Shown here in pieces: positions 4,072 through 29,162 of a stretch of 64,000 bases of DNA (its first letter is position 1; each line of letters begins with the position of its first letter). Made by a program: the position numbers and the translations under genes. Source of the stretch: Parcubacteria group bacterium (GTDB taxonomy: Bacteria > Patescibacteriota > Minisyncoccia > Moranbacterales > UBA9337). The notes below the pieces were generated by a model. The model ran no database searches. It saw only the letters and a list, made by a program, of their open reading frames with translations, and had not been told where the DNA came from. The DNA lies in the NCBI GenBank assembly GCA_041662245.1, contig JBAZSW010000002.1, forward strand, positions 11,835 to 75,834. Direction: 5' to 3'.

Positions 4072-5178
4072 ATGGCGAGAATAGTTTTAACTGGTGGAGG
4101 AACAGGTGGACACATTTTTCCTCTAATATCGGTAGTGGAAAAATTAAGAGAAAAAGATAAAAACATCGAACTATTATATTTAGGATCAGGTGGGGAATTG
4201 GAAAGAAGAATCATGAAAGAAAATTCTATTGATACTAAATATATAATGAGTGGAAAAATGAGAAGGTATTTCTCTTTAGCTAACGTGATTGATTTCTTTA
4301 AAATACCTATGGGAATCATTCAAGCTCTGTGGCAACTTTTGTGGTATATGCCGGACGTAGTTTTCTCTAAAGGGGGATATGTTTCTGTGCCGGTCGCTTT
4401 GGCGGCTTGGGCTTATTCTATTCCAATTTTAACCCATGAATCAGATGCGATGCCGGGATTAGCTAATCGAATTATCGGAGTAATCTCGCAAAGGATTGCC
4501 ATCTCTTATCCTCACACTAGTAGATATTTTTCTGAGAAAAAGATTCTCTTAACTGGAAATCCTATTAGAACTGATATTGCCAAAGGAGATAAAAGTGTTT
4601 TTTTGGAGAGATTTGCTTTAACTGAGTCTAAGCCGATCATCCTTATCTTGGGGGGCAGTCAGGGTGCACGTAATATCAATGTTGCTATCACTAGTATATT
4701 GAAAGATTTAGTGAGAATCGCTCAAATTATCCATCAGACAGGAGAGGCTAATTATGACGAAACGGTTAAACTTGCTAGGATGGCGGGAATAAAGGAAAAT
4801 CATGATGGTTATTATCCCATTCCTTTTATCAGTTCAGCGGATATGAAAAATGCGTTAAGTGTAGCTGATATAGTTATCAGCAGGGCGGGAGCCAACTCTA
4901 TTTCCGAAATAGCTGCTAATGCAAAGCCAGCAATTTTAATTCCTTTGTCGACAGCTGCCAATAATCATCAAGGAATGAATGCTTATTTTATTACAGAAAA
5001 AGGAGGAGCAATTGTTCTAGAAGAATCTAACATTGGCAGAAGTATGCTGATTCAAAAAATAGAAAAACTTTTAGCTGATAAAAAGGCAATGGAGAAACTA
5101 TCGGAAAATATAAAAGAATTTTATCATGCCGATGCTTCAGATAAGATAGCTCAGGGAATTCTTGATTTAGCTCGATAA
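4072..5178 (+). CDS. murG: undecaprenyldiphospho-muramoylpentapeptide beta-N-acetylglucosaminyltransferase
   Basis: MARIVLTGGGTGGHIFPLISV... is the MurG G-loop. 368 aa, GT28 architecture. Confidence 0.9.
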   Translation: MARIVLTGGGTGGHIFPLISVVEKLREKDKNIELLYLGSGGELERRIMKENSIDTKYIMSGKMRRYFSLANVIDFFKIPMGIIQALWQLLWYMPDVVFSKGGYVSVPVALAAWAYSIPILTHESDAMPGLANRIIGVISQRIAISYPHTSRYFSEKKILLTGNPIRTDIAKGDKSVFLERFALTESKPIILILGGSQGARNINVAITSILKDLVRIAQIIHQTGEANYDETVKLARMAGIKENHDGYYPIPFISSADMKNALSVADIVISRAGANSISEIAANAKPAILIPLSTAANNHQGMNAYFITEKGGAIVLEESNIGRSMLIQKIEKLLADKKAMEKLSENIKEFYHADASDKIAQGILDLAR

Positions 5179-27749: not shown

Positions 27750-27825
27750 TTTTTTTAGTAGCTTTTAACTTGTAATAGTGTATATAAAAATAAAAAAATC
27801 TCCTATTGCGAATGATCTGTACCCC

Positions 27826-27870
27826 AAAAAGTGGACATGCTAAAAAAGCACCTGTCCACTTTTTTGTTTT
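27826..27870 (+). terminator. rho-independent terminator after rplY
   Basis: AAAAGTGGACA ...loop... TGTCCACTTTT followed by TTGTTTT. Confidence 0.6.
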
Positions 27871-27909: not shown

Positions 27910-27995
27910 GTACCCCCACCAGGAATCGAACCTAGATCTTCAGCTTAGAAGTCCTGAAAGCTAAACACTTTCAGCTCTAGGTCAGTTGAGCGTAT
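27910..27995 (-). pseudogene. partial tRNA-Arg(TCT) copy (D-arm, anticodon loop and 3' half retained; 5' acceptor strand missing)
   Basis: 27910-27951 is 42/42 identical to 28066-28107 (anticodon loop through 3' end). A D-arm-like GCTCAACTGACCTAGAGC follows. There is no complement for the TGGGGGT acceptor strand, and about 22 nt are inserted before the anticodon loop. Confidence 0.5.
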
Positions 27996-28066
27996 TTATT
28001 TTGATGGAAGTTTCTTCAAAAGTTTTTTCTTTAAATTCAAAATTTGAAATTTGAAATTATTATGCG

Positions 28067-28138
28067 TACCCCCACCAGGAATCGAACCTAGATCTTCAGC
28101 TTAGAAGGCTGTTGCTCTATCCGTTGAGCTATGGGGGC
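28067..28138 (-). tRNA. tRNA-Arg (anticodon TCT)
   Basis: Minus-strand GCCCCCATAGCTCAACGGATAGAGCAACAGCCTTCTAAGCTGAAGATCTAGGTTCGATTCCTGGTGGGGGTA, which folds as a cloverleaf with anticodon loop CTTCTAA and a GTTCGATTC T-loop. Confidence 0.8.
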
Positions 28139-28143
28139 ATATG

Positions 28144-28216
28144 TGCGCTGTGGGGGATTCGAACCCTCGACCGTTTGCTTAAGAGGCAACTGCTCTACCG
28201 ACTGAGCTAACAGCGC
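28144..28216 (-). tRNA. tRNA-Lys (anticodon CTT)
   Basis: Minus-strand GCGCTGTTAGCTCAGTCGGTAGAGCAGTTGCCTCTTAAGCAAACGGTCGAGGGTTCGAATCCCCCACAGCGCA. The 7-bp acceptor stem pairs perfectly and the anticodon loop is CTCTTAA. Confidence 0.85.
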
Positions 28217-28460
28217 AAAAGTCTTAATAACATGGTCAATAGTAGCAATAAAATATAAGTTAGTCAATATAAATTTGAAAATCAGAATTGTTATGGTGGC
28301 TACTAGTATGCATATAATAAAGATGGGTTCTTTATGGTATAATTTAGCCGTGTTAAAAATGTCGAAAAGACACTCCAGTACGATTATCAGAGATGTTTCA
28401 AGCAGAAAACAGAAGAGTGTTGCCTTAGTGAAGGTTTAAATAAACTTTTTTTATTATAAT

Positions 28461-29162
28461 ATGATAAAATTTTTTAAAAACAAAAAAGATATTTTGGCAG
28501 TTATGTCAGAAAAGGATGCTGGATCGATGAAATTATTGAAAAATGATATCAACGAAAAAAACAGAAATAATTTTTTCAAAGATTTAGGAATTGATAAAAA
28601 TAATGTTTTTTCAGCCGAGATAGTCCATAGTGACAAAGTTGAGATCGTGGATAATGATTCTCCCAAGATAATCAAAGGAGCAGATTCCTTAATAACAAGA
28701 AGAAAAGTTTTTTTAGCGGTAACAATAGCGGATTGCATCCCGGTTTATTTTTATGATGAAAAAAATAAGGTGATCGGACTGGCGCATGCTGGTTGGCGTG
28801 GAATTGCCGATGGGATAATTAAAAATACTCTAAATAAAATGCTAACTTTAGGTGCGACAGCCATAGAAATTAATATAATTATGGGACCTGGGATAAGAGA
28901 CTGTCATTTTGAAGTAGATAATGATGTGGCGGTTAATTTTAAAAATTATTCAGAATTTATTTTTAAAAAGGAAAATAAAATTTTTATTAATCTTTTTGGT
29001 ATTATTAACAAAGAATCTTTAGATTTTGGAATTAAAAAAGAAAATATTTCTGATTATGAAGAATGCACCTTCGAAAATAGTAATAAATATTTTTCCTATC
29101 GAAGAGATAACCCAAAAATAGTGGAGGCAATGATAGCGATTATGGGAATGAGAGATAATTAA
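28461..29162 (+). CDS. pgeF: peptidoglycan editing factor PgeF (YfiH/DUF152 family)
   Basis: HSDKV...ADSLIT...TIADCIPVYFYD...LAHAGWRGIADGI match the conserved His/Cys/His blocks of YfiH. Confidence 0.75.
   Translation: MIKFFKNKKDILAVMSEKDAGSMKLLKNDINEKNRNNFFKDLGIDKNNVFSAEIVHSDKVEIVDNDSPKIIKGADSLITRRKVFLAVTIADCIPVYFYDEKNKVIGLAHAGWRGIADGIIKNTLNKMLTLGATAIEINIIMGPGIRDCHFEVDNDVAVNFKNYSEFIFKKENKIFINLFGIINKESLDFGIKKENISDYEECTFENSNKYFSYRRDNPKIVEAMIAIMGMRDN

Follow-up and report, generated by a model that had tools for sequence, protein, structure and literature searches.

A partial tRNA-Arg(TCT) copy in Candidatus Moraniibacteriota: possibly half of an old tRNA-derived unit, and not a recent integration scar

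We analysed a stretch of 64,000 nucleotides (contig JBAZSW010000002.1, positions 11,835 to 75,834; hereafter the window) in which the 3′ part of a tRNA-Arg(TCT) gene recurs exactly a short distance from the intact gene. The organism belongs to Candidatus Moraniibacteriota, within the Patescibacteria or Candidate Phyla Radiation (CPR), and its best relatives by protein L25 (68–80% identity) are metagenome-assembled genomes of that phylum. An initial annotation had taken the repeat for a possible scar of the integration and excision of a mobile element. The copy is not a recent integration scar. The explanation that we prefer, and to which we give about an even chance, is that the repeat makes up one half, the tRNA-identical one, of a unit derived from tRNA-Arg that is old and conserved. 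This unit would have arisen by tandem duplication, would be kept close to its parent in the 3′ half by gene conversion, would have hairpins held by selection on RNA pairing and would form a tRNA-like 3′ trailer of a tRNA operon.

Results

An exact 42-nt repeat within an 85-nt module

The repeat, GTACCCCCACCAGGAATCGAACCTAGATCTTCAGCTTAGAAG, is exact, as first described: positions 27910–27951 equal 28066–28107. No third copy was found in the 64-kb window with up to three mismatches allowed, and the 42-mer had no match in 100 dinucleotide-preserving shuffles. The gap between the two repeats measures 114 nt, against the 115 bp or so given initially. Read in the sense of the tRNA, the repeat starts at C32, where the anticodon loop begins, and comprises that loop, the 3′ strand of the anticodon stem, the variable loop, the full T arm, the 3′ acceptor strand, the discriminator and one further base, at which it ends. 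The copy had been placed upstream of the intact gene, which holds only in plus-strand coordinates; in the orientation of the gene it lies 3′ of tRNA-Arg.

The 42-nt copy forms the 3′ part of an 85-nt segment on the minus strand (27910–27994) that we term the D module. Its order is a D-arm hairpin, an extra hairpin of 7–8 bp (hairpin h) that replaces the 5′ strand of the anticodon stem, and positions 32–73 of tRNA-Arg; 5′ of the repeat it reads, in the sense of the tRNA, AAAAUAAAUAC-GCUC-AACUGACCUA-GAGC-UGAAAGUGUUUAGCUUUCAGGA. The GCTC of the D-arm-like segment lies 74 nt from the end of tRNA-Arg. The features first noted in this segment were all found again. The D-arm-like sequence is GCTC-N10-GAGC; 22 nt (TGAAAGTGTTTAGCTTTCAGGA) separate the D stem from C32, compared with 6 nt (AACAGC) in the real gene; and the 5′ acceptor strand is absent, with AAATAAA (AAAUAAA in RNA) in its place. 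ARAGORN makes no tRNA call at 27910–27995, so that no complete functional tRNA is recognised there, and the Rfam tRNA model gives 16.9 bits (E 7.8) at 27911–27982 on the minus strand, below its gathering score of 29. The D module cannot fold as a tRNA or decode, because neither an acceptor stem nor an anticodon stem is present. Its predicted fold has an energy of −27.5 kcal/mol (z −2.2). Coordinates are collected in Table 1.

The last 7 nt of the repeat, the 3′-end heptamer GGGGTAC of tRNA-Arg, occur three times in the 64 kb, all within 260 nt at this locus and on one strand. The third occurrence, beyond the terminator, may be the relic of a further unit, although a third decayed unit past the module was rejected, no alignment extending beyond the heptamer itself.

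Table 1. Positions of the features in the window and of the units and inserts in loci of relatives (locus:positions)
Feature	Position	Strand	Basis or remark
tRNA-Arg(TCT) copy, positions 32–73 plus one trailing C; 3′ part of D module	27910..27951	-	exact repeat of 28066–28107
Extra hairpin h, CUGAAAG-UGUUUAG-CUUUCAG, plus GA linker, in place of 5′ anticodon-stem strand	27952..27974	-	conserved in all D and U units
D-arm-like hairpin GCUC-AACUGACCUA-GAGC	27974..27991	-	alignment and pair counts; U units tie it to the real D arm
AT-rich spacer from tRNA-Arg to module, with phased A/T tracts and no terminator; 3′ end CUUUUGAAGAAACUUCCAUCAAAAUAAAUAC partly conserved in relatives	27992..28065	-	sequence
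tRNA-Arg(TCT), functional, parent of the copy	28066..28138	-	ARAGORN; Rfam tRNA 67.2 bits
tRNA-Lys(CTT), first gene of the operon, 4 nt upstream of tRNA-Arg	28143..28216	-	ARAGORN; Rfam tRNA 66.8 bits
Promoter-like TTGACT-17-TACTAT (with TG), upstream of tRNA-Lys	28239..28267	-	consensus scan
Bidirectional terminator hairpin, U run on both strands, after D module	27831..27859	.	fold −21.3 kcal/mol, z −4.2; sequence
Third GGGGTAC, just past the terminator	27819..27825	-	heptamer count
U units	L002:6505-6565; L001:8581-8642; L042:6820-6884; L064:11933-11993; L065:1804-1865; L070:22-85; L006:4908-4943		
T-loop inserts	L064:~11650-11685; L070:~330-350; L072:~235-260; L042:6555-6590; L002:6690-6725		
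Rearranged L25–PgeF intervals	L001:4667-8400; L042:4747-6520; L002:4664-6400; also L070, L086		
GC-rich T-arm inserts	L061:9771-9890; L073:~4745-4860; L071:1640-1740; L067:14030-14140 (minus strand)		
tRNA-Lys mini-units	L042:6990-7045; L081:2945-3090 (two copies); L085:60-100		

D modules in related genomes

For comparison we used 55 genome loci found through L25, 16 metagenome loci with the exact 42-mer and further loci found through PgeF homologues (individual loci are numbered L001 and so on). About nine Moraniibacteriota lineages have a D module of the same layout, 66–100 nt downstream of tRNA-Arg(TCT): L001; L002, with two D-type units in tandem; L042 (= L076 = L081); L070; L072; L086, where the module was read directly from the sequence; L064 (= L069 = L078 = L079, with the variant assembly L080); and L065 (= L068), where it is truncated. 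The shared plan is a leader, ..AAAAUAAWUAC, followed by the D-arm hairpin, then CUGAAAG-loop-CUUUCAG (with UUGAAAG/CUUUCAA as a variant), then GGACUUCUAAGCUGAAGAUCUAGGUU... and finally ...CCUGGUGGGGGUAC. None of these loci holds a second exact copy of the 42-mer. The duplication, including the 22-nt insertion, thus recurs at the same place in related species and must be old; the initial annotation had itself taken presence throughout the relatives as a sign of an ancient and unrelated origin, and this is largely what was found. In L003, whose L25 is 76% identical, tRNA-Arg is followed directly by a terminator and L25; only a 14-nt remnant, AGGACTTCTAAGTT, is present, upstream of tRNA-Lys.

Several relatives carry inserts within the module. 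Those in the T loop sit between C56 and G57, as 21 nt (CTCCTCCAGAGGCGGACAGGG) or as a 32-nt hairpin (CTCAACCAGAG..CCTCTGG..), and had no match among known ribozyme families. A GC-rich palindrome of 25 nt, CCTGCCTGCCGGTAGGCAGG, occupies the loop of the extra hairpin in L001 (8360-8385) and L072 (175-200), and the same palindrome occurs in L065 (1560-1600) with a further nested insert of 30 nt. The L065 module is cut off after the D arm, and its leader and D arm make up one arm of a 30-nt inverted repeat (77% complementary; arms at 1357-1386 and 1633-1662) that encloses 246 nt and resembles an insertion of the MITE (miniature inverted-repeat transposable element) kind.

U units and concerted evolution

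A sister unit, the U unit, stands between tRNA-Lys and tRNA-Arg in L001, L002, L042, L064, L065 and L070, and in L006, where it is cut by the contig end. It runs from a 5′ acceptor strand, GCCCCCA-UA, through a D arm and an extra hairpin, CUAAAAG-UGUCAG-CUUUUAG, to AGGACUUCU and a 3′ part that has decayed; its last bases, ACAAUUUAAUAUAU (ACAATTTAATATAT), immediately precede the functional tRNA-Arg. The central 28 nt of the U unit are identical in five species, and it is through the U units that the D arm of the module was shown to be homologous to the D arm of the real tRNA-Arg. When scored with a covariance model derived from 13 units, the window module reaches 83.6 bits, the other units 56.6–79.5 and canonical tRNA-Arg only 42–43. 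Both kinds of unit always adjoin tRNA-Arg(TCT); the model found no unit in other CPR clades that share an identical tRNA-Arg, and ARAGORN called no unit as a tRNA in any relative's locus.

The number of U units upstream of tRNA-Arg is zero, one or two in tandem. The window has none, its two tRNA genes being 4 nt apart. L080 has two tandem 88-nt units (1079-1227) that differ at five sites, compared with a single unit in L078 (1167-1227), L079 and L064. Over the 750 aligned nucleotides L078 and L080 show no other difference except a C-to-T change in the acceptor stem of tRNA-Arg in L080. Homology extends past the exact repeat, the units stand head to tail and copy number changes between close relatives, as in a tandem array. 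Identity between the 40 nt that follow the gene and the 40 nt that follow the module is 95% for L070 and 80% for L042; the window has 58–59%, and the between-genome background is about 61%. The values for L070 and L042 indicate that the 3′ flank was once part of the duplicated unit and is still homogenised in some lineages. Likewise, the L042 module has the CTAAAG variant of its own gene, where the other species have CTGAAG. The 42/42 identity in the window, beside a divergent D-arm part, would best be read as gene conversion from the functional gene, with a conversion tract that appears to be bounded on one side by the heterologous hairpin.

Conservation of pairing in the unit-specific part

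In the alignment of the 13 units, the fraction of paired cells is 97.8% for hairpin h and 96% for the D stem. Together the two helices have 11 pairs, and at four of these (three of them in h) both sides have changed. In hairpin h the double changes include G-C to A-U and A-U to G-C; in its D stem, the L064 U unit has a change from G-C to A-U. The variants of the D stem include G-U. None of 500 shuffles, a control that ignores relatedness, reached the observed covariation score, and pairing falls to 26–54% when the partners are slid by 1–3 columns. For six D modules RNAalifold adds a closing pair to hairpin h, split 3:3 between C-G and U-A. There are 17 G.U cells; such pairs form on the tRNA-sense strand only. 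Furthermore, the loop of hairpin h varies, with 6 or 7 nt in most units and the 25-nt palindrome in L001 and L072. Because the loop is free to vary, a folded single strand fits better than a duplex palindrome bound by protein.

The mean identity between species is 79% for the 40 nt specific to the module (shuffles 49%), 65% for the adjacent spacer (shuffles 56%) and 55% for the trailer; the neighbouring PgeF proteins are 53–66% identical. Since the spacer and the module-specific part share the same conserved anchors, the tRNA and the 42-nt copy, yet differ in conservation, exchange between species or gene conversion is not sufficient by itself. Taken together, these comparisons suggest that selection on RNA pairing maintains the hairpins specific to the units.

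Three further helices were considered and rejected. An acceptor-like helix of leader UACGCUC with 3′ GGGGGUA, proposed by RNAfold and RNAalifold, is broken in two of six species and competes with the better supported D stem. The long-range helix GACCUAGA/UCUAGGUU of the minimum-energy fold in the window is not conserved in modules of the GAGAGAG type and so is no family feature. A switch-like pairing of CUUUCAG with a downstream CUGAAG has no covariation, is broken in L064 and is lacking in the U units. When the window was searched for complements of the hairpin and anticodon segment, only the module itself was found. Rfam 15 gave only tRNA and chance matches, both in the window at 26–30 kb (E ≤ 10) and in seven relatives' loci (E ≤ 1).

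Position within a tRNA operon

ARAGORN finds two tRNA genes in the whole 64 kb, tRNA-Arg(tct) and tRNA-Lys(ctt), both on the minus strand. The TTGACT-17-TACTAT motif recurs upstream of tRNA-Lys in L002, L064 and L085 and is probably the promoter of the operon. The 71-nt AT-rich spacer after tRNA-Arg folds only to −6 kcal/mol and has no stable hairpin, and no sigma-70-like site that might serve the module as a promoter of its own was found on its minus strand. The only strong hairpin with a U run in the unit, at 27831–27859, lies past the partial copy and is common to the tRNA operon and the convergent L25 gene (27081–27749, plus strand). Thus the D module stands inside the tRNA-Lys/tRNA-Arg unit, ahead of its only terminator. 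With a promoter before tRNA-Lys, no terminator in the spacer and a terminator after the module, the partial copy is probably transcribed in the 3′ trailer of the operon, as judged from this layout.

The genes within about 10 kb on each side have housekeeping functions only: a formyltransferase, a deformylase, glycosyltransferases, FtsW/RodA, VanW, Hsp20, ValRS and TsaD, besides L25 and PgeF (28461–29162, plus strand). In the only other assembly of the organism, which is 31-mer-based, one contig (L056) ends at about 27840 and another (L057) starts at about 28180, on either side of the tRNA and module region; contigs L085, L086 and L087 likewise end inside the tRNA cluster. Assemblies of this kind are probably broken here by the repeats and by tRNA sequences shared between strains.

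Searches for traces of integration

The geometry of the locus is that of tRNA integration of the anticodon-loop class, with a direct repeat from the anticodon loop to the 3′ end, downstream of an intact gene. Sublocation classes of integration sites in tRNA and tmRNA genes were reportedly set out by Williams in 2002. No integrase, transposase or phage gene was found within 10 kb on either side (Pfam, 17.9–38.2 kb: housekeeping only), and no integrase or recombinase was found in the relatives' loci. An insertion between the repeats was looked for in related genomes: no cargo lies between tRNA and module in any of the roughly nine lineages, and the variable genes lie beyond the module. The search for elements carrying the 42-nt attP-like sequence gave a similar result. 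Neither the 42-mer, nor the T-arm/acceptor 24-mer, the module junction or the U-unit hairpin had a match in 2.9 million IMG/VR viral contigs; BLAST against the INPHARED phages matched only through phage tRNA-Arg genes, and plasmids gave no match, although CPR mobile elements are poorly sampled and the missing attP is for this reason weak evidence. Of the scar first proposed, then, the repeat geometry stands, while integrase, cargo and attP copy are all missing and the duplication is old and recurs in related lineages; local duplication by slippage, which had been mentioned as an option, fits better.

The L25–PgeF interval forms a hotspot of rearrangement. Compared with the window, L002, L070 and L086 have the tRNA cassette in inverted orientation. 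The genes that separate L25 from the cassette also differ: L001 encodes a P-type ATPase and an HD protein there, and the L042 and L064 groups encode a 113-aa protein together with an FAD-binding reductase.

Other remodelled tRNA fragments

In other CPR lineages we observed a GC-rich insert of about 65–70 nt (GGGCGYGAGUA...CUCCGAGUCGGAGCGAGGAG), with compensatory differences, within a T-arm-like stem. Next comes the 3′ acceptor strand that matches the tRNA just upstream, tRNA-Lys in L061, L071 and L073 and tRNA-Glu in L067; the insert in L071 has as its flanks a 54-nt exact repeat composed of the tRNA-Lys 3′ end and its flank. The insert, which has no Rfam match, may be an RNA element, mobile or functional, that moves along with 3′ fragments of tRNAs. 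L071 also has, downstream of tRNA-Arg, a tRNA-Arg 3′ fragment with a 58-nt T-loop insert (1905-1995), and L067 has a tRNA-Lys-like 5′ copy with a 37-nt T-loop insert (~1925-2030) upstream of the canonical tRNA-Lys. Mini-units made of a tRNA-Lys 5′ fragment (GCGCTGTTAGCTCAGTTGG..GCCAGTTGGCGC) precede the canonical tRNA-Lys in three lineages and parallel the U units of tRNA-Arg. Finally, L081 (3329-3381) has GGGTCCCCCTT, a GC-rich repeat of 11 nt in 4.8 tandem copies (97% matches), in the otherwise AT-rich intergenic region that separates the tRNA cluster from PgeF.

Discussion

In the explanation that we prefer, tandem duplication and unequal recombination of the tRNA-Arg gene would have produced the units, and gene conversion would keep the tRNA-identical part, in some species together with its flank, like the parent gene. 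Selection on RNA pairing would hold the unit-specific hairpins. The module would be co-transcribed and then released as a structured, tRNA-like 3′ trailer, and this RNA might serve the processing or stability of the precursor, or divert, as a decoy, factors that would otherwise bind tRNA-Arg at its anticodon loop or T arm. A number of observations weigh against this account. The boundary of identity falls exactly at the anticodon loop, as integration would give, and the flank after tRNA-Arg in L003 is 64% identical to the window's flank after the module (above all 300 shuffles) and 48% identical to its flank after tRNA-Arg. A hairpin common to the U and D units is missing from the gene between them, so that simple tandem duplication is insufficient unless gene conversion between pseudo-copies is added. 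The module is absent from L003 and truncated in L001 and L065, and is thus dispensable, at least in some lineages. Its T arm is intact in the window, carries inserts of 21–32 nt in the T loop in L064, L070, L072, L042 and L002 and is degenerate in the second unit of L002; given this heterogeneous 3′ half, one fixed three-dimensional structure is disfavoured. The evidence for selection comes from about 15 sequences in about nine lineages, with some five or six compensatory events.

An ancient integration event is an alternative that the geometry suggests, and we regard it as doubtful. An element of the anticodon-loop class with a tyrosine recombinase would have integrated into tRNA-Arg in the ancestor of the clade, leaving the intact gene as attL and the module as attR, in which the D-arm-like segment and hairpin h represent the arm of the element joined to the displaced 3′ half; its interior would have been deleted to some 70–100 bp, and the remnant, a miniature 'attP-only' element, would now be fixed or still mobilisable in trans like a cis-mobilisable element. 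This would account for a repeat that runs from C32 to the 3′ end downstream of an intact gene, for the resemblance of L003 to an empty site and the relationship of its flanks, for an AT-rich spacer with phased A/T tracts like the arms of attP, and for the variable gene content and orientation of the region between L25 and the cassette. A conserved non-tRNA sequence just upstream of each repeat is also known from the ssrA islands of Dehalococcoides (PMC3146451). However, genes for integration or recombination are missing within 10 kb on each side in the window, the tRNA–module interval is empty in every lineage with variable genes only beyond the module, and searches of viral contigs, phages and plasmids turned up no attP-like copy. 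The relic would also leave unexplained the upstream U units, in which the same hairpin adjoins a 5′ acceptor strand, and their changes in tandem copy number, and the compensatory changes, the G.U pairs and a loop of 6–7 nt that can grow by 25 nt suit a folded single strand better than a duplex site.

It is unlikely, in our view, that the units are simply pseudogenes, that is, tandem duplicates made by slippage or unequal crossover that decay without function and resemble each other between species through slow decay and gene conversion, perhaps with interspecies exchange anchored on the identical tRNAs. The copy-number polymorphism of L080 and L078, the loss in L003, the truncations in L001 and L065, the assorted inserts of the T-arm region and the presence of other tRNA-derived fragments in the clusters (such as the tRNA-Lys 5′ fragments of L042, L081 and L085) are all what such decay would produce. 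Against this, the 40 module-specific nucleotides could not have been copied from a gene that has no hairpin h and yet are 79% identical, compared with 65% for the spacer; substitutions in hairpin h and the D stem almost all preserve pairing; and some 90 nt of useless DNA kept in about nine lineages would be unexpected in streamlined CPR genomes. Finally, the copy had been suggested to be a degenerate tRNA with an intron-like insertion, or U and D might be the halves of a split tRNA, so that a functional tRNA-Arg would be assembled. Split and multi-intron tRNAs do exist in archaea (PMC10714607), and in some relatives a U unit with the 5′ acceptor strand and a D unit with the T arm and 3′ acceptor strand flank the gene. 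In a preprint (bioRxiv 10.1101/2020.01.27.920355), group I is the only type of tRNA intron described as known in bacteria; we looked for at least 200 nt with a group I core and for exons that join into a complete tRNA. The 22 nt are far below the size of a group I intron, Rfam recognises no intron family, and the segment is a conserved hairpin with compensatory changes, not an intron; its removal would still leave no 5′ anticodon-stem strand and no complete tRNA. In addition, U and D are not complementary halves but paralogues, with homology across the D arm, hairpin h and anticodon loop; the window has no U unit, and neither ARAGORN nor Rfam makes a call. We consider an intron-containing or split tRNA exceedingly improbable.

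Several known systems resemble the locus in part. At the Dehalococcoides islands, tandem ssrA repeats each have a conserved motif upstream (PMC3146451). As at such tRNA and tmRNA islands, a partial 3′ copy lies here downstream of an intact gene, the repeat runs from a loop (here the anticodon loop) to the 3′ end, conserved non-tRNA sequence precedes it and several tandem repeats are possible. Here, though, the repeats are only 114 bp apart, with no integrase, integration module or cargo found there and no attP-bearing element found; the 'arm' is itself derived from a tRNA (the D arm), has a hairpin that changes in a compensatory way and is matched by 5′-side units upstream of the gene. Cis-mobilisable elements are pairs of attL and attR left after an integrative element has lost its genes, as in the family of the integrative and conjugative element ICESt of Streptococcus thermophilus; they span kilobases and are identified when compared with a resident integrative and conjugative element that has the same att sites. 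They share with this locus two att-like repeats around a short gene-less segment at a tRNA-type site, but the segment here, about 0.15 kb in size, has no known cognate element or integrase.

The closest functional analogies may be a pseudo-tRNA and the functional 3′ external transcribed spacers of tRNA operons. The 'tRNA-Other' of Bacillus cereus is tRNA-like and forms part of a longer regulatory RNA, with a near-complete cloverleaf and experimental phenotypes (PMC3399842). Like the module it is a tRNA-derived, non-decoding element beside tRNA or island DNA, and it is expressed in a longer RNA; the module differs in lacking the acceptor and anticodon stems, in having an added hairpin and in being known from its sequence alone. 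In E. coli, 3′ETS-leuZ, a functional 3′ external transcribed spacer of a tRNA operon, reportedly acts as a sponge for small RNAs (Lalaouna and colleagues, 2015). Both it and the module are segments past the last tRNA of an operon and before the terminator, 3′ETS-leuZ being released by tRNA 3′ processing. Unlike the module, 3′ETS-leuZ is not derived from a tRNA and pairs with known small RNAs, whereas no pairing partner for the module was found in the window. The non-canonical introns and split tRNAs of archaea, described by Kanai and co-workers (summarised in PMC10714607), also place extra sequence at unusual sites, which here are the position before the anticodon loop and, in the modules of relatives, the T loop. 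The present case differs in being bacterial, in lacking both a bulge-helix-bulge context and a full set of exons, and in having an intact tRNA-Arg without introns beside it. A full-text search of the literature on tRNA introns, inserts and pseudo-tRNAs in CPR bacteria found no description of such units.

A broader proposal, which we put forward tentatively and would not call probable, is that the D and U units form an undescribed family of conserved, expressed, structured RNAs derived from tRNA-Arg(UCU) in Moraniibacteriota, retained for acting on the biology of tRNA-Arg. Such units would be disabled as tRNAs by the added hairpin, by inserts at the T-loop elbow or by the loss of one acceptor strand, and may take part in precursor processing, serve as decoys that occupy enzymes or toxins with affinity for the anticodon loop or T arm, or control dosage. 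The tRNA 3′ fragments with structured GC-rich inserts that stand beside canonical tRNA-Lys, tRNA-Glu and tRNA-Arg in other lineages may reflect a wider habit of CPR bacteria.

In conclusion, partial tRNA copies beside tRNA genes are routinely taken as the footprints of phages or genomic islands, and here such a copy appears to be a conserved, remodelled tRNA derivative. On the practical side, assemblies based on 31-mers probably break at this tRNA cluster. If the unit were instead an ancient att relic, it would show for how long relics and their arms can persist, and would call for caution in inferring integration sites from repeats alone. The setting is one of uncultured, genome-reduced bacteria that should not carry idle DNA, and the unit has signs of selection on RNA pairing. 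If the RNA is expressed, it would be a rare case of a bacterial, tRNA-derived, non-decoding RNA that is kept across species. It would also provide a concrete locus at which to ask how CPR bacteria process and regulate tRNA-Arg(TCT), a tRNA that is heavily used because AGA is the main arginine codon of AT-rich genomes.

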